DNA from: Terriglobia bacterium
GTDB taxonomy: Bacteria > Acidobacteriota > Terriglobia > Acidiferrales > UBA7541
Assembly (NCBI GenBank): GCA_963695545.1
Contig: OY968796.1
Coordinates: 256,001-320,000, forward strand
DNA: 64,000 bases
Reading direction: 5' to 3'
Shown: positions 13,232-64,000 of the stretch, piece by piece
Position numbering within the stretch: position 1 is the first letter of the stretch
Layout: every line of letters begins with the position of its first letter
Translations under genes and position numbers: made by a program
The notes under the pieces: generated by a model
The model's input: only the letters and a program-made list of their open reading frames with translations
Database searches by the model: none
What the model was told of the DNA's origin: nothing

Positions 13232-13308
13232 TGGCGCGGCTGGAGGGATTCGAACCCCCGACCTAACGCTCCGGAGGCGTTCGCTCTATCCATCTGAGCT
13301 ACAGCCGC
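13232..13308 (-). tRNA. tRNA-Arg (anticodon CCG)
   Basis: GCGGCTG/CAGCCGC acceptor stem, TAGCTCAG D arm, CTCCGGA anticodon loop, GGTTCGAATCC T arm, encoded CCA. Confidence 0.97.
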
Positions 13309-25061: not shown

Positions 25062-25141
25062 CGTGTCACTCAGAATCTCAAAACTTTCAGGACGGAGACG
25101 CAGAGAGAAGGAAAACCGCGAGGAAGGCTCGGGTCGTCGCC

Positions 25142-25334
25142 TCTCGATAGCGCTCCATCCGTTTGTGACGGATGACAGTGGACAGGCCTTAGACCTGTCC
25201 CCCAGTCGCGCGGGGCGTCAGCTGCCCCGACGACTTCGGCGGACCCTTCCTGCTAACTGCCCTTTTCGCCCGGCGTCCGATGCTGCTCGGAACCGCTCGC
25301 CGGGCTACTCGTGGCGTCCGCACCTCTACCAAGA
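25142..25334 (-). ncRNA. Lysine riboswitch (L-box)
   Basis: Minus strand TCTTGGTAGAGGTGCG...GAGTA...CGCCGAA...CTGGG...ACTGTC...GGAGCGCTATCGAGA; P1 TCTTGGTAG/CTATCGAGA; directly upstream of the dap genes. Confidence 0.92.
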
Positions 25335-25342
25335 ACGTAAAC

Positions 25343-27298: not shown

Positions 27299-29305
27299 TC
27301 AGACCATGCCGCCGGCGCGGCCTTGCGTCAGATTCCAGAGCGTGGCGACGAGAGCGTCGCAATCCTCGCGCGTGTTGTAGAGGGCGAGCGAAGCGCGCAC
27401 GCTGCTTTCAAGACCGAAGCGGCGATGAATCGGCTGGGCGCAGTGATGGCCGGCGCGGACGGCGATGCCTGCGGCGTTGAGCGCGGTGCCGACGTCTTCA
27501 TTGCGGAAACCATCGAGGATAAAGGAGAGCACGCTGGTTTTTTCCTTGGCCGTGCCGATCAGATGAAGTCCGGGAACGGTTTGGAGAGCTTCAATCGCAT
27601 ATTCCAAAAGATCGTGTTCGTAGCGCGAAATGTTGTACATGCCGATGCGCTCGATGTAATCGATCGCCGCGCCGAGGCCGACGGCGTCGGCAATGCTGCC
27701 GGTGCCGGCTTCAAAACGCTGCGGCGGATCGCTGTAAACGGTTTTTTCAAACGTGACATCGGAAATCATGCTGCCGCCCCCTTGCCACGGCGGCATGTGT
27801 TCGAGAGTGTCGAGCTTGCCGTATACCGCGCCGATTCCAGTGGGCGCGAAAACTTTGTGTCCCGAGAAAACATAAAAATCGCAATCGAGCGATTGCATGT
27901 CGGCCTGCATGTGAGAGACGGCTTGCGCGCCGTCGAGGAGAACTTTGGCGCCGACGCGATGCGCGAGCTCAATCATTTTGCGCGCGGGAGTGACGGTGCC
28001 GAGCGCGTTTGAAACTTGCGCGAAGGCCACCAAACGCGTGCGCGGGCCGAGCAGCTTGGCATATTCATCGAGAAGGATTTGGCCCGAATCGTCGACGGGA
28101 GCGACTTTGAGGCGCGCGCCCTTTTCTTTGCAGAGCATTTGCCAGGGCACGATGTTGGCGTGGTGCTCAAGCCAGGTGATCACGATCTCATCGTCTTTCT
28201 GAATGTTCTGGCGTCCCCAGCTTTGCGCGACGAGATTGATGCCTTCGGTCGCCCCGCGCACGAAAATAATTTCGCGCACGTTTCCGGCGTTCAGGAAGCG
28301 GCGGACTTTGGCGCGCGCGCCTTCGTAGGCGTCGGTTGCGCGGGCGGCGAGTTCGTGAGCGGCGCGGTGCACGTTGGAATTTTCGTGGGTGTAAAAATAA
28401 TTCAGGCGATCGATCACGGCTTGCGGTTTTTGGGTGGTCGCGGCGTTATCGAGCCAAACGAGCGGGTGACCATTGACGCGCTCGTTCAGGATCGGAAAAT
28501 CGCGGCGAATCTCTCCGATTTCAAATGGGCGCGAAGACAAACCCAGGTCGGGGATGGACACGGCTTCCGAGCGCAGCGGCTCGACGACGGGAATGACGTC
28601 GACGGATGTGAGCTGGCGGATTCCGTGGACGAAAGCGTCGAAGGTCGGTTGGGCTGTGGCGTCGGGGCGCTGCCAGGATCCGGCAACGAGCGGCGCTGAT
28701 AAAAATTCGGCCCCTGAAAGCGGGATCGCGGTGGGAATTCCACCGGCTGAGGCGGCGGATTCTTTCTCGGGAGCTTTCGTCGATGTGGCCGGAGGCTGCG
28801 AGAGATTGTGCGCGGGGGCGGCGTAGTCGGTGAAAAGCGGGCGAGCATTTTCCAGGAACGAAAAGGAAGTGGGGACGCTTGATCCGGCGAAACCGGATTG
28901 ACCGGGGAATTCCGGGAGCGACACCGCGGGGATGGACGGCTGAAAAAGTGGCACGGTTGGCGAGAGAGGGACGGAGGATTCTCCGACGCCGGAAATCGCA
29001 TCGATGAAATCGGATTCGGTCAGGTCGGAAGCGCTGGGCGGGGCCGCGGCCGGAGCGGATTCTGCTGCGGCGGGGAGCGACGAGGCGTCAGCTACCGATT
29101 CGTTGCCGGACGGTTGAGAAAAGCCGGGGACGGCGGTGAAGAATTCGGTGGCCATGCGCGCGAGAACGGCGGGATCGGGCAAGTTCGCGGGCAAAGCCGC
29201 ACCGCTTGTCCAGTCACTGGCGCTCGCACCGCTCTTTTTCGCGGCGGGCTTAGCGGCTGCGGGCTTCGCCCCGGGCGCTGCGGATTTTGTGTCACTTCGC
29301 GTCAT
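27299..29305 (-). CDS. Family 2A encapsulin cargo cysteine desulfurase (SufS type) with long disordered N-terminus
   Basis: WLDNAATTQKP, FSGHK, RAGHHCAQP; ~250-aa Pro/Ala/Ser-rich extension with LARMATEFF; start overlaps the shell gene end. Confidence 0.95.
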   Translation of the reverse strand: MTRSDTKSAAPGAKPAAAKPAAKKSGASASDWTSGAALPANLPDPAVLARMATEFFTAVPGFSQPSGNESVADASSLPAAAESAPAAAPPSASDLTESDFIDAISGVGESSVPLSPTVPLFQPSIPAVSLPEFPGQSGFAGSSVPTSFSFLENARPLFTDYAAPAHNLSQPPATSTKAPEKESAASAGGIPTAIPLSGAEFLSAPLVAGSWQRPDATAQPTFDAFVHGIRQLTSVDVIPVVEPLRSEAVSIPDLGLSSRPFEIGEIRRDFPILNERVNGHPLVWLDNAATTQKPQAVIDRLNYFYTHENSNVHRAAHELAARATDAYEGARAKVRRFLNAGNVREIIFVRGATEGINLVAQSWGRQNIQKDDEIVITWLEHHANIVPWQMLCKEKGARLKVAPVDDSGQILLDEYAKLLGPRTRLVAFAQVSNALGTVTPARKMIELAHRVGAKVLLDGAQAVSHMQADMQSLDCDFYVFSGHKVFAPTGIGAVYGKLDTLEHMPPWQGGGSMISDVTFEKTVYSDPPQRFEAGTGSIADAVGLGAAIDYIERIGMYNISRYEHDLLEYAIEALQTVPGLHLIGTAKEKTSVLSFILDGFRNEDVGTALNAAGIAVRAGHHCAQPIHRRFGLESSVRASLALYNTREDCDALVATLWNLTQGRAGGMV

Positions 29306-30236
29306 GATAGTTGCCGACTTCAACGTCTTCGAGAGCGGCGATGGCGTCGTCGGTGAGAATCGCGGCCGAGCAATAGAGCGAGATCAAATAGGACGCGAGC
29401 GATTTGTTGTTGATGCCCATGAAGCGGACGGAGAGGCCGGGCGTTTGCTCGCCGGGCAAACCGGGCTGGAAAAGACCGATGACGCCCTGTTTTTTTTCTC
29501 CGACGCGCAGAAGAAGAATATTCGTTTTGCCCTTTTGACCTTTGGGCTTGGCCTGTCCATCGACGTTCAATTTCTCGGTGGGGAAGATGGGGACGCCGCG
29601 CCAGGTGACGAACGGCGAACCGAAGAGCGTGACGGTGGGCGGAGGCACGCCGCGCAGCGTGCATTCGCGGCCGAAGGCGGCGATGGCGCGGGGATGCGCG
29701 AGAAAGAAGGAAGGCTCTTTCCAAACTTTGCTGAGCAATTCATCGAGATCGTCGGGCGTGGGCGAGCCTTTGCGGGCCTTGACGCGCTGCGAGGGCGCGA
29801 CGTTTTTGAGCAGGCCGTAATCGTCGTTGTTGATGAGCTCGCTTTCCTGGCGCTCCTTGACGGTTTCGATGGTGAGGCGAAGCTGTTCTTTGATCTGATC
29901 GTAAGGATTGCTATATAGATCGGAAACGCGGGTTTGGACGTTCAGAACGTTGGAGATGGCGCAGAGCGTGTATTCGCGGGGCTTTTCGTCGTAGTCGACG
30001 AAGGTCTCCGGGAGCGTCTTTTCTTTGGGCTCGGCGCCGCCGCAGGCCACTTCGACTTCTTCTTCGTTGACCACGCGATTCACGCGGAACGTGCCGGCTT
30101 CGAGCGGTTTCCAATCGAGCAGGCGCACGAGCCAGCGCGGCGTGATGGCGCCATATTGCGGCGGAGTCTTGGTGATATTTGCGAGCTGAAATGCTGCGCG
30201 GTCGCCGAGCGCGTGGTGCGGTGTGTTATCAGGCAT
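29292..30236 (-). CDS. Family 2A encapsulin nanocompartment shell protein (SrpI/major membrane protein I-like)
   Basis: ITPRWLVRLLDW, LPETFVDY..PREY, TRVSDLYSNP, PTPDDLDELL, LSVRFMGIN. Confidence 0.95.
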   Translation of the reverse strand: MPDNTPHHALGDRAAFQLANITKTPPQYGAITPRWLVRLLDWKPLEAGTFRVNRVVNEEEVEVACGGAEPKEKTLPETFVDYDEKPREYTLCAISNVLNVQTRVSDLYSNPYDQIKEQLRLTIETVKERQESELINNDDYGLLKNVAPSQRVKARKGSPTPDDLDELLSKVWKEPSFFLAHPRAIAAFGRECTLRGVPPPTVTLFGSPFVTWRGVPIFPTEKLNVDGQAKPKGQKGKTNILLLRVGEKKQGVIGLFQPGLPGEQTPGLSVRFMGINNKSLASYLISLYCSAAILTDDAIAALEDVEVGNYHDAK

Positions 30237-30418
30237 CAGAAATCCCCTTTTGCGGAGTGCGAAAATTGGCTTTCGAGGCGCTGCCATCGAGGGGCAGCAG
30301 TCCGATTCCGCGTGCGCCCGCTATCGTAGCAGGAATGCGCGGGTTGGTGATAATCGAGAGGGGAGGGCGCGACGGAACGCGCGGCGATGGCGCGGATTGG
30401 GCCGGCGGGGAGGAGCGA

Positions 30419-30600
30419 GGTATATATACCCCCCTATGTTTTGCGTAAAAAGCGGAAAACAAAGGGGATGCAGGGAAAGAGTGCGGATGAGTGTGAAAAC
30501 ACAGGGATGTAATCTTGAGTGGAATCAATGAGTTGCGCACTCTTTTGCAAGAGTGTGAAAACAAGGCGCTTACAGGGGCAAAAAGTGAGGAGAAATGCGC
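30419..30600 (-). repeat. Dispersed intergenic element, copy 1 core (homologous to 62390-62570)
   Basis: 30444-30566 reverse complement aligns without gaps to 62424-62546 (92/123 by hand count), including identical 18- and 23-nt blocks. Confidence 0.9.
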
Positions 30601-30686
30601 AGTGAGAGACTCATTGGCGGAGGCGGATGGAGGCGCGAAGGCAGCGCGGGCGTGAAATCGCGGATTTTGTTTTGCGGTCACACCAC

Positions 30687-30715
30687 CTTATAGCATGTAA
30701 GTCAATACATGTCCA
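30687..30715 (-). promoter_or_regulatory. sigma70 promoter reading into element copy 1 (towards the encapsulin operon)
   Basis: TGGACA-17nt-TATAAG with extended -10 TG; GTG 5 nt downstream. Confidence 0.65.
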
Positions 30716-31149
30716 GAGTAATTTGTGAGTATACCATTCGAAAAGTCTGTGGAAATCGATTCGAATGGGATGTGTGGGTGCGGCAAATGCAACTGTCGGA
30801 GCCTTAACTTCGAGCGTAGGATTCGCCGGGCCTGCTTCTGGCACTCATCACGAGCTCGTTGCGGGGCGCGGAAACGAAAGCGTCGAATCGAATAAAGCGC
30901 AAATCGAGAATGGAGAAGGAAAAGTGCGTGAGAAACGAGTTCGAGAAGTGCAATTTTAGGCCTTAGGATTTTCCCGTAGCCGCCGAAAAGGCCATGCCGT
31001 TGAGAACGTCGCTGGAGGCTTGAAAAGCGAAACAGTCAAATGTAAATTGGCGGTCGCCGAAAGGTCAAAACGGAAATTGCGGATAAAATGCCGCTCAATC
31101 GGAAAGGCTGCGAACTAGCCGTCTCTTCAAAACGTCGGAGGGAGCTTTA

Positions 31150-40768: not shown

Positions 40769-40845
40769 TGGAGGCGCGGGTGGGATTTGAACCCACGCGT
40801 GGAGGTTTTGCAGACCTCTCCCTTAGACCTCTTGGGTACCGCGCC
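40769..40845 (-). tRNA. tRNA-Cys (anticodon GCA)
   Basis: GGCGCGG/CCGCGCC acceptor stem, GAGGT-CTGCAAA-ACCTC anticodon arm, GGTTCAAATCC, U discriminator + CCA. Confidence 0.97.
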
Positions 40846-59948: not shown

Positions 59949-60932
59949 TTACTTCGACGCGGCCTGGTGCGTCGCGGGCGTCACCGTCGACGAATCCGCC
60001 GGAGTCGGCACGCCAAACGTGTTCAGCAATTTCCCGCTCGCCACATCCCACAGCTTGATCGTGTTGTCGGCATTTCCGGAAGCCAGACTGTGCCCGTCCG
60101 GACTGAAGGCCAACGCACCGGGGTTGCCGGAAGGATCGGAGAGTGAACGCAGCGCTTTGCCGCTCGCAACATCCCACAGTGCAATCGTACCGTCCCCACT
60201 GGACGAAGCCAGCGTGTGACCGTCCGGGCTGAACTCCAGATAGGAAGTCCAGAATTTTGTGCTCGACAACGTAAACGTGACCTCGCCCGTCGTGGCGTCC
60301 CACAATTGAATCGAATTCATCGGATCCCCCGCGTCGCTCTCGGCTCCCGGAGAATCGTCATTTCCCGCAGCCAGCGTGTGCCCGTCCGGGCTGATCGCCA
60401 CGACTTTTGGCTTGTCGCTGCCGGTGGGTATCAGTTTGGTTTGCTTCCCCGTCGCGACGTGATAGAGCCTGATCGAAAAATCGTCGCTTCCTGACACCAG
60501 CGTCTTCCCGTCGTTGCTGAACACCATGTCCTCGATCTTCAGCCCGTTCCCGGAAAGTGTGTGGAGTTTCGCCCCGGTCGAGACGCTCCACAGAAATATC
60601 GTGAAGTTGTCCGAGAAATAGACCGCGTTATTTGTCGCCGCCAGCGTCCGCCCGTCCGGGCTCAGCGTGTCGTTGTTCTCGACCGATCGAGTGGGAACGG
60701 CAAGCGCGCGTCGCGATTTCCCCTTCGCGATGTCCCACACCGTAACCGTAAACGTCCCCGGCTTCGTAAAGCTCATCACGAAGATCGAGCGTCCATCGCT
60801 GCTGAACGCAACTGAATTGATCCAACTGTTCGGACCGTAGTCGGCCCCCTGCGCCGGCTTCCGCCCGTTGCCCCACGCGCAAGCCGCCAGCGCAATCACC
60901 ATCGCGCACGCGCCCCAAATTTTCTTCCTCAT
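59949..60932 (-). CDS. Secreted WD40-repeat protein
   Basis: Signal peptide MRKKIWG...; repeated FSPDGHTLAS...IxLWD. Confidence 0.9.
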   Translation of the reverse strand: MRKKIWGACAMVIALAACAWGNGRKPAQGADYGPNSWINSVAFSSDGRSIFVMSFTKPGTFTVTVWDIAKGKSRRALAVPTRSVENNDTLSPDGRTLAATNNAVYFSDNFTIFLWSVSTGAKLHTLSGNGLKIEDMVFSNDGKTLVSGSDDFSIRLYHVATGKQTKLIPTGSDKPKVVAISPDGHTLAAGNDDSPGAESDAGDPMNSIQLWDATTGEVTFTLSSTKFWTSYLEFSPDGHTLASSSGDGTIALWDVASGKALRSLSDPSGNPGALAFSPDGHSLASGNADNTIKLWDVASGKLLNTFGVPTPADSSTVTPATHQAASK

Positions 60933-61033
60933 ATCCACCCCGCCGACGAATCGGAATTGGCACAGCCCTGCGCGCTGCCGGCGTCCGGCGCCGCTCGCCG
61001 ATGTGCGCGCGCAAACCCGCGCAAGCCCCTGCG

Positions 61034-62119
61034 CTACTGAGTTCCGCCCGCGGATCCCGTGTTCGCATCCGGCGGATTCGCCACGCCGAATGTCCGCAGC
61101 AGTTTCCCGCTCGCCACATCCCACATCTTGATCGTGTTGTCATCGCTTCCCGAGGCCAGCGTGTGCCCGTCCCGGCTGAAGGCAATCGAAGTCACGAAAT
61201 CGGTATGGCCGGTCAGCGTCTGCAGCACTTTCCCGGTCGCGACGTCGATCAGATGGATCGCGTAATTATCGCTTTGCGACGCGAGCGTGCGGCCATCGGG
61301 GCTAAACACCACGGGATAGCCCTCGCCAGCGAATTGGCGAATCACCTGCCAGGTAGAGACGTCCCATAGCGCGACCGTATTATCGGAACTCGTCGAGGTC
61401 AGCGTGTGCCCATCCGGGCTGAAGACCACATCGGAGACATCTTTCGGCAGCGTGCGGATGATCTCGCCGGTCGAGACGTCCCACAGATCGATCGTATTGA
61501 TCGCATCCGCCGGGTTGCGAGAATTGATTAGCTGATAGTTGCTGCTCGCGCTCGCGAGCGTGTGCCCGTCTGGGCTGAACGACACGGCGAAGACCATACC
61601 GACATTGTCATACATCGTGCGAACTAGACGGCCCGTCGCGACATCCCACAGCATGATCGATTGGTCCTGACTTCCCGAGGCCAGTGTCCGTCCGTCGGGG
61701 CTGAACTCGTTGTCGTCGGTTTGCTTCGTGTGCCCGGTCATGGCGTGGAGCGTCTTCCCGGTCGCGACGTCCCACAGCGTGACCGTGAAGTGCTCAAAAT
61801 CCGTATTCAGACTACCTCCCGCGACCAGCGTGCGCGCGTCGGGACTGAAGGCGTACCCGTCGTACAGAACTGGCGCGTTGCTTGAGAATGTGCGACGCGA
61901 TTTTCCCGTCGCGATGTCCCACAAAGTAATCGTAAGAACTGCCGGCTCGTCAAAGCCCGCCACAACGATCGTGCGCCCATCCGCGCTGAACGCCACGCAA
62001 TTCATGCCTTTGCCCGGGCCGTACCCGAACTGCGGCGCAGCCGGTTTCCGCGCATGCCCCCAAACGCAAGCCGCCAGCGCAATCACGATCACCGGAACAT
62101 GCCACAATTTTTTCATCAT
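61034..62119 (-). CDS. Secreted WD40-repeat protein (paralog of 59949-60932)
   Basis: Signal peptide MMKKLWH...; repeated FSPDGRTLAS...LWDV. Confidence 0.9.
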   Translation of the reverse strand: MMKKLWHVPVIVIALAACVWGHARKPAAPQFGYGPGKGMNCVAFSADGRTIVVAGFDEPAVLTITLWDIATGKSRRTFSSNAPVLYDGYAFSPDARTLVAGGSLNTDFEHFTVTLWDVATGKTLHAMTGHTKQTDDNEFSPDGRTLASGSQDQSIMLWDVATGRLVRTMYDNVGMVFAVSFSPDGHTLASASSNYQLINSRNPADAINTIDLWDVSTGEIIRTLPKDVSDVVFSPDGHTLTSTSSDNTVALWDVSTWQVIRQFAGEGYPVVFSPDGRTLASQSDNYAIHLIDVATGKVLQTLTGHTDFVTSIAFSRDGHTLASGSDDNTIKMWDVASGKLLRTFGVANPPDANTGSAGGTQ

Positions 62120-62150
62120 CTCTCCCTCGCAGGCGTATTCGAATCCCAAG

Positions 62151-62179
62151 AGGCTAGGCGGTAGCGGCGCGAGTGTCAA
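62151..62179 (-). promoter_or_regulatory. sigma70 promoter for the WD40 pair
   Basis: TTGACA-17nt-TAGCCT. Confidence 0.6.
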
Positions 62180-62232
62180 ACCGCCGGCTTTTTGCCAACC
62201 TGTGGATATCTATTCGAATACTAATTTAGTTA

Positions 62233-62261
62233 TTGACAATAGAATGCCTCTGCGCTATCAT
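62233..62261 (+). promoter_or_regulatory. sigma70 promoter reading into element copy 2
   Basis: TTGACA-17nt-TATCAT; GTG 5 nt downstream; no annotated plus-strand gene follows before the convergent hydrolase. Confidence 0.75.
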
Positions 62262-62389
62262 CCTCCGTGTTCCCCGATCCCAATTCGAATACTTCCCATC
62301 ACCGCCTTCCGGAAAAGGCGTCCGCCCGGGTTGGCATTACGCTCCCGTCGAATTCCGCCGTCTTCCGCGCCTCCCAACTCGCACAATTC

Positions 62390-62570
62390 CGCACATCCTG
62401 CGCACTTACCCCTCCCGCAACCACCTTGTTTTCAATCAAATACAAAAGAGTGCGCAACTCGCTCATAATAAACGATATTAACTCCCTGCCTTTTCACACT
62501 CATCCGCACTCTTCTCCTGCAAGCCCAATTGTTTCAGCAATTTACGTTTTTGGTGGGGGGTGTATATACC
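62390..62570 (+). repeat. Dispersed intergenic element, copy 2 core (homologous to 30419-30600)
   Basis: Shares CAAAAGAGTGCGCAACTC, TTTTCACACTCATCCGCACTCTT and GGGGGGTRTATATACC with copy 1. Confidence 0.9.
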
Positions 62571-62671
62571 GGCTCCATCCCCGATGGACGCTTCTCGGAC
62601 CATGGGCGAGCCCACTCCATCAAAATCAGCGATTTCTCACCCTGGCTGGGACGGGATCGCCGAACGTGCCG

Positions 62672-63601
62672 CTACGGTCTGGGCAGCGAATCGAGCCAAG
62701 TGAGCACGGCGGTTTCAAGCGCGATGCGATGATCGGAATAAACATGGTCCGTCGCCATGTGAATCGCCGTGACCTTCGCGGATCCGGCTTTTTTGAGCGC
62801 AGCCACAAATGCGTCGTTCGGCGCGGCGAGACCGTCGTCGGACGTCACAACCAGGACGGGCCGCGAAACAAGTTTCGGTGCGAAGCCGATGGAATCCCAA
62901 CTCGCTTGGTTGGCGATCACTTCGCGCGCCAGACTTTCCGGCGTGCAGCCTGCGAGCGGCGCCATGTCCTCCTTCGCCAGCGCGGCGGCCACGCTTGCCA
63001 CCGTCGCGCCGCTCGGTTTATCGGCCGATCCGAGCGGCCACGTATCCATGCCGCCAAGATTCGCCGCGGAGATCATGCCCACCGCCTCGACACTCGGATC
63101 TTCCGCGCCGGCAAAATTCGCCATAAAGCCGCCCATGCTGTGGCCAATCAGCACGATGCGCGCGGGATCCGCTCGCAATTTTTTCGCGTTCGCGGCATCG
63201 CGCAAATATGCGATAGCCGCCTCCGTATCCTCAATGCAGTGCGTAAACGAAAAATCGCCCGGCGAGCCCCACGAGCCGCGATAGTTGAAGTACAACACGT
63301 CCCAGCCGTCCCGCCGAATCGCTTGCGCCAGATCGAGATTCTTCTCGTTGCCCGGAAAGCCATGCAGCAGCACAACAACAGGATGCGGCCCCGTTCCCGC
63401 GGCGATATACACAATCGCGTTGAGCAGCGCGCCGTGACTCGGCAACTGAAACGCCTCCACCGCGGCGGGATCGGTTTTATCCGGAGCCGGATCGCTCGCG
63501 ATCGCCGCCGGAACTTGCTGCGCGCAAACGCGCGGAGATATCGCAATCGTGAAAACGCCGAGCAGTACGCTTGCCCAAACAGCACAAATGAGTCGTCGCA
63601 T
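62672..63601 (-). CDS. Secreted alpha/beta-fold hydrolase
   Basis: LLHGFPGNEKN, YRGSWGS, GHSMGG nucleophile elbow, DH; signal peptide. Confidence 0.9.
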   Translation of the reverse strand: MRRLICAVWASVLLGVFTIAISPRVCAQQVPAAIASDPAPDKTDPAAVEAFQLPSHGALLNAIVYIAAGTGPHPVVVLLHGFPGNEKNLDLAQAIRRDGWDVLYFNYRGSWGSPGDFSFTHCIEDTEAAIAYLRDAANAKKLRADPARIVLIGHSMGGFMANFAGAEDPSVEAVGMISAANLGGMDTWPLGSADKPSGATVASVAAALAKEDMAPLAGCTPESLAREVIANQASWDSIGFAPKLVSRPVLVVTSDDGLAAPNDAFVAALKKAGSAKVTAIHMATDHVYSDHRIALETAVLTWLDSLPRP

Positions 63602-63750
63602 GCCGCGATTGTTCTGGCCGCGCGAAAGGATGTCAATCAATATCCCCGCGCGGCTGTCGGTCTTGGTTTTGTAGCGGAGGCCTTCAGCCCTCCATGCCAT
63701 GGTTTCGCGCGCGCGACGCTTCGCAACGCGAACGGTTACACTATATCGCG

Positions 63751-64000
63751 ATGCCTCCGATGTCCTGCGAAGTCGCTCTCCCCGTCCCGCTGCGCTCGAC
63801 GTTCACGTACCTCGTGCCCGAGTCGCTCGCCGAACGCGCCGTCGTCGGCGCGCGCGTCCTTGTTCCCTTCCGCAATCGCGCGCTCGTCGGCGTCATCGTC
63901 GAACCGCCGCGCCGCGCCCCCGAAGACAAGCCACTCAAGGAGCTGCAAGACGTTCTCGATCCGGCGCCGGCCTTGCCGCCCAGCGTCGTCGAACTTGGCC
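63751..64000 (+). CDS. priA: Primosomal protein N', 5' part (runs off window end)
   Basis: MPPMSCEVALPVPLRSTFTYLVP...GARVLVPFRNRALVGVI 3'-DNA-binding domain. Confidence 0.9.
   Translation, partial: MPPMSCEVALPVPLRSTFTYLVPESLAERAVVGARVLVPFRNRALVGVIVEPPRRAPEDKPLKELQDVLDPAPALPPSVVELG

Follow-up and report, generated by a model that had tools for sequence, protein, structure and literature searches.

A dispersed intergenic cassette of Terriglobia with its own promoter and an open, sequence-free frame from the predicted transcript start

Why should the same promoter-bearing piece of DNA stand in front of an encapsulin gene and again, in the opposite orientation, against a hydrolase gene elsewhere on the same contig? 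The question arises in a 64,000-nt stretch of a Terriglobia bacterium genome (hereafter the window; contig OY968796.1, G000:C1:256001-320000), the genome itself, G000, being one 4.16-Mb contig with a G+C content of 60.6%. A reading of the window from its letters alone (the sequence-only reading) had proposed an unannotated dispersed element in two copies, and most of its anatomical claims are borne out. Recomputing the gapless alignment of the reverse complement of 30444-30566 with 62424-62546 returned exactly the 92 identities in 123 positions that had been counted. The two invariant blocks lie where they had been placed, CAAAAGAGTGCGCAACTC at 30547 (-) and 62443 (+) and TTTTCACACTCATCCGCACTCTT at 30499 (-) and 62491 (+); the common end GGGGGGTRTATATACC is found at 30434 (-) and 62555 (+), and in both copies the 9-bp inverted repeat AAGAGTGCG/CGCACTCTT encloses the variable middle. 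Both copies have the described promoter with a 17-nt spacer and a GTG 5 nt past the -10 element, and inside the unit we likewise found no transposase, terminal inverted repeat or spacer array. In a blastn search of the genome with copy 1, copy 2 is a match at E = 6e-17, a similarity well outside what chance would give. The element is located as described, in 30419..30766 and 62200-62570, while these limits had to be redrawn: the units span ~30766 to ~30412 on the minus strand and ~62200 to ~62581 on the plus strand.

The claim that the element is present twice fell at the first genome-wide count. Searching G000 with an nhmmer profile built from blastn matches of the core (69 in this genome), we found 82 copies at a score of at least 39 bits, 56 of them at 130 bits or more, and ~24 additional units have the same 5' module with other cores. 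The earlier proposal of a selected multicopy unit with its own promoter is supported. The core of these 82 copies, which we call type 1, is conserved over ~170 nt within whole units of ~300-650 bp. It reads approximately ...TTTATTTTCAAT..TTGCAAAAGAGTGCGCAACTCATTGAAA..(variable)..TTTGTTTTCACACTCATCCGCACTCTTTTCCTGCA..TTTGTTT..TTTACGCAAAACATACCGGGGGTGTATATAC, with the invariant motifs CAAAAGAGTGCGCA, TTTTCAYACTCWTNCGCACTCTT and AAAACA..CCGGGGG, and conservation ends sharply past TATATAC. On a gene map from our own crude gene caller (3,061 genes), all 82 copies are intergenic, the 18 apparent overlaps being same-strand open reading frames (ORFs) whose called starts had been extended back through the element. 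The next downstream gene is co-oriented with the copy in 58 cases and convergent in 24 (binomial p = 2e-4). A shared function of the neighbours was rejected, as the 30 downstream genes scanned are functionally unrelated: they include encapsulin, SecA, threonyl-tRNA synthetase, gamma-glutamyltranspeptidase, an elongation-factor-type GTPase, hydrolases and reductases.

Upstream of the core, 72 of the 82 copies share a module composed of a TTGACA-like -35 element, 16-18 nt, TAnnnT (mostly TGCTAnnnT), 4-6 nt and an ATG (44 units) or GTG (28 units). The gap between the -10 element and this codon is 5 nt in 70 of the 72 units, and in most of the remaining 10 copies the module is recognisable with minor departures, such as a TTG start or a weaker -35. 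Such a geometry fits a leaderless mRNA whose predicted 5' end falls on the start codon; leaderless genes are predicted in each of the three Acidobacteria genomes considered, at a mean of 13.3% (PMC3160421). The GTG that the sequence-only reading had recorded exactly 5 nt after the -10 proved to be its key detail: the codon acts like a start codon placed on the predicted transcript start, with the frame behind it kept open. Upstream of the -35 element lie a TTCGAATA box and a ATTTCCACA box, the latter in either orientation, and many units have a palindrome, CAATTCGAATTG, ~20 nt past the start. The distance from the start codon to the GAGTGCG block of the core ranges from 76 to 506 nt.

Of 74 genomic matches to a strict promoter-plus-start pattern, 51 are at type-1 cores and ~20 of the other 23 at cores of two further types. 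Type 2 (~20 copies, e.g., 1772942 (+), 2099863 (+) and 614632 (+), none in the window) contains three AGAATCAACACTTCTG-like repeats and ends in AAAAACACCCGGGGG.AGGGGGG, and type 3 (at least four copies in G000) is shorter and reads ..GAACTGCTCGTGCACAC..ACCCGGGGGTGTCCCCC. All three types end in an A-rich stretch and a G-run. Thus, one 5' module is joined to at least three cores. The 5' parts themselves form several subfamilies, and in one of them a REP-like hairpin lies further upstream. A REP-like repeat that is separate from the units (AGCCCCGTAGGGGCGGCACATTTTAGCCCAGGGCGGAAGCCCTGGGTACG, ~40 A/T-rich nt, AAGCCCCGTAGGGGCGACACA) occurs at 42 sites in G000 (e.g., 2548541, 2603571 and 150380), none of them in the window, and its last hairpin forms the 5' edge of one unit subfamily. 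Beside a unit of the sister species G003 (L069, G003:C150), a ~75-nt element bearing the hairpin GGAGGCCTGAAGGCCTCC is duplicated in tandem; the hairpin is also found near G000 units (e.g., unit 3245925), and the element looks like a further intergenic repeat family of the genus.

The two window copies show this anatomy in full. Copy 1 begins on the minus strand with its upstream boxes (30727..30766): TTCGAA at 30765-30760, ATTTCCACA at 30756-30748 and TTCGAA at 30742-30737, the same boxes standing at a fixed distance from the -35 in 72 units and in other genera. Promoter and start follow at 30679..30715 (TGGACA 30715-30710, 17 nt, TGC-TATAAG with the -10 at 30692-30687, 5 nt, GTG 30681-30679). 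Behind them lie a C-rich, non-conserved spacer, putatively a translated part of the frame (30582..30678), and a type-1 core (30412..30581; nhmmer match at genome 286412-286579, 151.6 bits) with the invariant blocks at 30547 and 30499 and the G-run plus TATATAC at 30434-30419. The open frame from the GTG (30229..30681, 150 codons) crosses spacer and core and stops 5 nt past the encapsulin ATG (ATGCCTGA); it belongs to no Pfam family and has three weak database relatives. Copy 2, on the plus strand, opens with CTGTGGATAT at 62200-62209, an inverted ATTTCCACA-type box, and TTCGAATA at 62213-62220 (upstream boxes, 62200..62220). Its promoter and start occupy 62233..62269 (TTGACA 62233-62238, 17 nt, TATCAT 62256-62261, 5 nt, GTG 62267-62269), with a TTCGAA palindrome at 62284-62289, a spacer that sequence comparison shows to be non-conserved (62270..62411) and a type-1 core (62412..62581; genome 318412-318581, 138 bits) bearing its G-run plus TATATAC at 62555-62570. 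A syntenic unit is present in G003. The frame from this GTG (62267..64000, +) runs antisense through the convergent alpha/beta-hydrolase gene (62672..63700, -; PF00561, PF12697, PF20434) and past the window end, reaching 714 codons in the genome.

Is the frame open by chance? Stop codons are excluded from one frame only, the one set by the start codon. From start to core end in type-1 units of G000 (n = 72), this frame contains 10 stops compared with 160 and 167 in the other two, and it is open in 66 copies compared with 3 and 5; in the spacer alone there is 1 stop compared with 91 and 44, and 71 copies are open compared with 18 and 40. The type-2 units of G000 (n = 16) have 1 stop versus 47 and 78 (15 open versus 0 and 0), units of the sister species G003 and G004 (n = 23 of 32 distinct units) have 3 versus 61 and 62 (21 open versus 1 and 0), and those of distant Acidobacteriota metagenome-assembled genomes (MAGs; n = 51 of 80 loci) have 8 versus 99 and 87 (46 open versus 10 and 7). 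Replicated in these four independent sets, the exclusion is strong though indirect evidence for a putative translation of the frame from that codon. Measured from the GAGTGCG block, the three possible positions of the start frame are used 37:27:1 across 65 units and 22:15:1 across 38 distinct spacer lengths (p = 4e-6), and the avoided frame is the one with TGA or TAA inside the core. Stop depletion lasts to the core end and then relaxes; the median distance from the core to the first stop is 194 nt in the start frame, with the control frames giving 88 and 115 nt (Mann-Whitney p = 7e-6). In 32 of 52 co-oriented units (hand count), the frame ends no more than 16 nt away from a plausible downstream start or extends past it.

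The open frame nevertheless lacks amino-acid constraint. Spacer composition (C 39%, G 21%) is flat across codon positions, codon log-odds against G000 genes are negative in all frames, and core entropy by codon position is 0.65/0.65/0.60. The strong and replicated exclusion of stops is what one would expect of a small-protein gene family, in which basic, disordered peptides of 100-180 residues rich in P, S, A and R would be selected for composition and the core would be homogenised by gene conversion. The predicted peptides do contain P 13.5%, S 12%, A 11.5% and R 11% with few acidic residues, and all anchored type-2 units (15 of 15) use a single frame. However, the same invariant nucleotides are read in two frames by different copies (…CKRVRNSL… and …LQKSAQLIE…) and in three by distant units, and there is neither a third-position excess of variation nor a codon-usage signal. 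Between orthologous units of G000 and its sister species, spacers are ~42% identical, compared with 44% for the downstream flank, 63% for the core and 58% for the promoter, and spacer lengths differ by 1, 1, 9, 11, 41 and 73 nt, differences that do not keep to multiples of three. A Pfam scan of four unit frames gave no credible family (MARVEL, 13 bits, E = 0.09, cut-off 32.8 bits), and only three weak relatives were found among 5.8 billion proteins. On balance we regard a small-protein family as quite unlikely.

If the product is not what is conserved, the RNA might be, and the sequence-only reading had indeed listed a structured non-coding RNA among its interpretations. As a small RNA or cis-acting leader, the unit would have the 9-bp stem as its core; the stem AAGAGUGCG/CGCACUCUU occurs in all 31 aligned copies, and copy 1 folds better than its shuffles (z = -4.1). 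However, copy 2 shows no such advantage over its shuffles (z = -0.03), and for copy 1 an even better fold is obtained from the opposite strand (z = -4.95). RNAalifold on the 31 copies retained the invariant stem alone, with 13 predicted pairs, none of them compensatory, and a covariation term of +0.12, and on 50 distant copies it predicted no pair at all. In most of the distant units the 5' arm is AAGAGTCCG, which opposite CGCACTCTT produces a mismatch and breaks the stem. Without compensatory change and with a broken stem in distant units, the blocks behave as sequence motifs. The region also sits within the frame that is kept open. The unit lies outside any Rfam family: none reached its gathering score there (best E = 0.55-6 in 30200-30800, far below the cut-offs), and type-1, type-2 and type-3 units gave no Rfam match at E ≤ 1. 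The structured-RNA reading is thus already largely refuted, and we consider it very improbable. Most of the distant units also carry CGCACTCTTT twice, and in many distant units the stretch of spacer immediately before the core contains repeats of a TTCAACTTTGAACTTTCGACTTTGAAC-like motif (alignment columns ~70-115).

Sequence motifs can also act in DNA. The blocks and the TTCGAA/ATTTCCACA boxes could form a platform on which a nucleoid, replication or regulatory protein is bound, and thereby titrated or positioned, at ~100 places, with transcription and the frame being secondary. Consistent with such a role, the 18-nt and 23-nt blocks are invariant and show no compensatory change where pairing is possible, perfect palindromes (TATTCGAATA and CAATTCGAATTG) flank the promoter at about -55 and +20, and ATTTCCACA occurs 54 times versus 9 for TTATCCACA. 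A DNA platform would leave the frame-specific exclusion of stops and the strand-specific excess of C over G unexplained, however, and no cluster of boxes, of which there are at most 2 per 600 nt, marks a replication origin. We give this explanation only an outside chance. We take ATTTCCACA and TTTTCCACA to resemble DnaA boxes, a likeness that found no support here; a DnaA-box reading was dropped for want of an origin-like cluster.

Another reading is that translation itself matters. We tentatively favour, with somewhat less than even confidence, a dispersed cassette that yields a leaderless transcript and has it translated so that promoter read-through survives into neighbouring DNA. A consensus sigma-70-type promoter behind TTCGAA-type palindromes and a ATTTCCACA-type box would start transcription on the ATG or GTG 5 nt past the -10, giving a leaderless RNA, and ribosomes would load on the 5'-terminal start codon and read a frame of ~100-200 codons. 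The product would be irrelevant: selection would keep the frame open across the C-rich, fast-evolving spacer and the core, and in most cases further in the direction of the next gene, and continuous translation would shield the read-through transcript from Rho-dependent termination and decay. We infer this protection because a terminator-like hairpin plus T-run precedes the gene in only 2 of 58 co-oriented units and because the RNA is strongly C>G. In this way the cassette could impose a shared, box-dependent control on downstream DNA, in sense at 58 and in antisense at 24 of the 82 copies. The promoter boxes suggest a shared regulator, and the invariant core motifs suggest a second, sequence-specific partner, a trans-acting factor that would read them as sequence rather than as folded RNA. 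The data themselves establish the anatomy, the copy number, the exclusion of stops, the lack of amino-acid constraint and of covariation, the phylogenetic spread and the gain and loss between species; transcription from the predicted +1, leaderless translation, shielding from Rho, a common regulator and the mode of spread are inferred from them.

Several observations weigh against this account. The 24 copies that face convergent genes fit it poorly, and the 58:24 orientation bias is modest and may partly reflect the location of intergenic space. Stop/start overlaps of the NTGA kind number 12 in the start frame and 7 and 8 in the control frames; because the controls show them almost equally often, we dropped these overlaps as evidence and rejected translational coupling through ATGA. 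The account leaves ~40 core nucleotides, invariant from genus to class level, unexplained, and the supposed dependence on Rho is deduced purely from the C>G composition. Finally, downstream of the unit, at 30323..30353 (-), the encapsulin operon has a promoter-like stretch (TTATCA ... TGCTACGAT) that is conserved in three species, including G004, which has no unit upstream of its 94%-identical encapsulin gene. The encapsulin gene is therefore not dependent on the unit.

How widely is the cassette distributed, and how stable is it? With blastn we detected the core in three of the five other genomes belonging to the genus (at least 39 copies in G003 and at least 19 in G004) and in 0 of 35 genomes of other genera. 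This confinement reflects the sensitivity limit of the search, because both the 23-nt motif and the 5' module have a much wider distribution. For the exact 5'-module pattern we counted 48 occurrences in G000, 19, 18, 8, 5 and 2 in the five sister genomes, and small numbers in five further genera of the family; none turned up in the 16 searched genomes of two other families, and a reversed control pattern gave 0 everywhere. (The 5'-module tallies and those of Y1 genes given below include the genomes G013, G007 and G031, flagged as unpublished; no conclusion depends on them.) Loci of other genera have the same layout, with the start codon 4-7 nt past the -10 in 6 of 9 inspected. With three degenerate positions allowed, the 23-nt block is found in at least 91 stretches of public genomes, nearly all of them Acidobacteriota MAGs by record title. 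One public contig with the 23-nt motif (L108; JBKQRS010000133.1, 3.8 kb) is labelled as a Bradyrhizobium MAG; it is probably mis-binned, because its full promoter, start and core layout is typical of Acidobacteriota units.

For 12 units of G000, both window copies included, sister species have a unit at the orthologous place. At four places (L057, L061, L069 and L079) there is a unit in G003 or G004 and none in G000, and the encapsulin gene of G004 has already been mentioned as lacking one. Filled and empty alleles, which the sequence-only reading had suggested looking for, thus exist between species; their flanks are too diverged for exact junctions, and target duplication was not readable. 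Together, the orthologous units and the filled/empty differences show that units are old and retained, and are also gained or lost as whole pieces.

Gain and loss raise the possibility of a selfish, non-autonomous mobile element, copied in trans, possibly by IS200-like Y1 (HUH) transposase-like proteins, in which promoter and frame would serve the element's own propagation or tolerance. Besides the presence/absence differences at the four places and at the encapsulin gene, the variation of 5'-module number within the genus and the many copies at contig ends of draft assemblies speak for mobility. G000 has six IS200-like Y1_Tnp genes (177-375 aa, three clustered; 1474387-1479357, 1198842-1199456, 1387411-1387944 and ~1424860), and each of the four independent loci has a unit no further than 2 kb away (permutation p = 5e-5); coordinate comparison places Y1 genes <200 nt to ~1.4 kb from 5' modules in G001, G003, G004 and G008. 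On the other hand, the two ends of the units do not form inverted repeats (left CCCTGTGGAAAT..., right ...CCGGGGGTGTATATAC), target duplications could not be made out, and no match of the whole unit was found in plasmid or phage collections. Y1 counts do not track unit counts (17 Y1 genes and 2 modules in G005; 6 and 48 in G000), with no correlation across 41 genomes. Replication strand bias is absent (39 of 82 copies co-oriented, on a weak skew-based origin estimate), and TnpB is missing from G000 (PF07282, 0 matches). The 12 orthologous units and the conservation of the core motif across distant Acidobacteriota MAGs also imply long retention, which counts against a selfish element. We judge such an element unlikely, although on how copies spread it overlaps with the translated cassette that we favour.

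Among narrower versions of the mobile reading, that of a TnpB guide RNA was rejected: neither a TnpB gene nor a strand bias was found. Nor does the unit resemble a miniature inverted-repeat transposable element (MITE), its ends being unrelated by inspection of the alignments, with no dedicated end-repeat search run. Membership of the REP/REPIN-RAYT systems was rejected, since the units are not palindromic doublets and Y1 loci are always flanked by a unit on one side only. One 375-aa Y1_Tnp ORF ends at the start of a unit's 5' module.

Extended to the whole class, the preferred reading becomes bolder, and we hold the extension to be a good deal more doubtful than not. In that form, Terriglobia would possess a hitherto undescribed, modular translated-leader cassette with an operator-flanked promoter, a start at +1, a sequence-free frame, one recognition core out of several exchangeable ones and a closing G-run. 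Genes without any other relation would be tied together by ~100 such cassettes per genome, on the sense or the antisense strand, as a single translation-coupled regulon that is read via the core motifs, and domesticated Y1 (HUH) transposase-like proteins would help the cassettes to multiply.

Does the cassette correspond to any described element? Putative mobile promoters are defined by at least 80% identity over at least 50 nt ahead of non-homologous genes (Matus-Garcia, Nijveen & van Passel 2012; commentary PMC3575422). Copy 1 and genome 2603069-2603204 are 90% identical over 135 nt, and identities of up to 90% over 135-159 nt occur, with unrelated genes downstream. The likeness is that near-identical sequence stands ahead of non-homologous genes within one genome. 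Mobile promoters are defined by similarity alone, whereas the cassettes have a set architecture of boxes, consensus promoter, start codon on the predicted +1, open frame without constraint and any one of three cores closed by a G-run; 24 of 82 lack a co-oriented downstream gene. Correia elements, ERIC and BOX are named in that commentary as promoter-bearing intergenic repeats (PMC3575422). Like these (Correia in Neisseria), the cassettes are present in about a hundred dispersed intergenic copies able to carry promoters and alter the expression of neighbours. Terminal inverted repeats and a length below 200 bp characterise Correia and ERIC elements, whereas the cassettes have no such repeats and measure ~300-650 bp. 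No Correia, ERIC or BOX element is known to need an open frame from its own transcript start.

Mycobacterial leaderless short upstream ORFs are reported to act as attenuators via their cysteine codons (Canestrari et al., bioRxiv 10.1101/834739). Their transcripts start on AUG or GUG, and the unannotated first ORF of the polycistronic message governs the genes that follow, much as is proposed for the cassettes; they are short, single-locus and codon-specific, in contrast to the 100-200 codons, the lack of codon specificity, the conserved core and the ~100-copy family reported here. REP sequences are 20-40-nt palindromes that form inverted doublets as REPINs, and RAYTs are Y1, IS200-like transposases. 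With these systems the cassettes share a dispersed intergenic distribution in a genome with IS200-like Y1 genes, whose loci lie near units beyond chance; they differ in not being palindromic, in carrying a promoter and open frame and in not flanking Y1 genes on both sides. Rickettsia palindromic elements, too, are repeats compatible with translation, but they are located within host genes and bring along neither a promoter nor a start.

By analogy, the cassette would function most like a promoter-bearing dispersed repeat, with an upstream ORF conceptually closest to the mycobacterial leaderless attenuators. A limited search of the open-access literature found no description of such cassettes. 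In view of the similarity found at mobile-promoter level, the negative results for Rfam, MITE, REP, TnpB and protein families and the lack of a description, we file it as a promoter-bearing dispersed repeat with an unusual property. That property, a sequence-free open frame from the predicted transcript start, is well replicated, and no described element matched it.

Should the preferred reading be correct, a major soil phylum would spread one promoter logic genome-wide via a portable cassette whose +1 start codon and "meaningless" frame solve the termination of untranslated bacterial transcripts. The cassette would then be a testable case of selection on translation itself rather than on its product, and would explain ~100 long unannotated intergenic stretches per genome. 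It would also hold a warning for annotation, as the frames often fuse in frame with the next gene and distort gene starts (18 over-extended ORF calls). Even if its function proves to be another, the unit offers a compact, strong promoter/start module and a set of invariant motifs with which to find a binding partner in the genetically difficult Acidobacteria.

The gene downstream of copy 1 encodes a family 2A encapsulin shell protein, similar to SrpI (29292..30236, -; PF19307, 354 bits), and is followed by a gene for a 674-aa cysteine desulfurase (27299-29323, -; PF00266, 486 bits). The catalytic domain of the desulfurase begins only at residue 289, behind a long N-terminal region rich in alanine, proline and serine. 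Elsewhere in the window there are a lysine riboswitch (RF00168, 71.7 bits) at 25140-25336 (-) and tRNA genes at 13235-13308 and 40772-40845. Before copy 2 lie two adjacent paralogous WD40 beta-propeller genes with signal-peptide-like N-termini (59949-61124 and 61034-62179, both on the minus strand), the second of which was scanned against Pfam.

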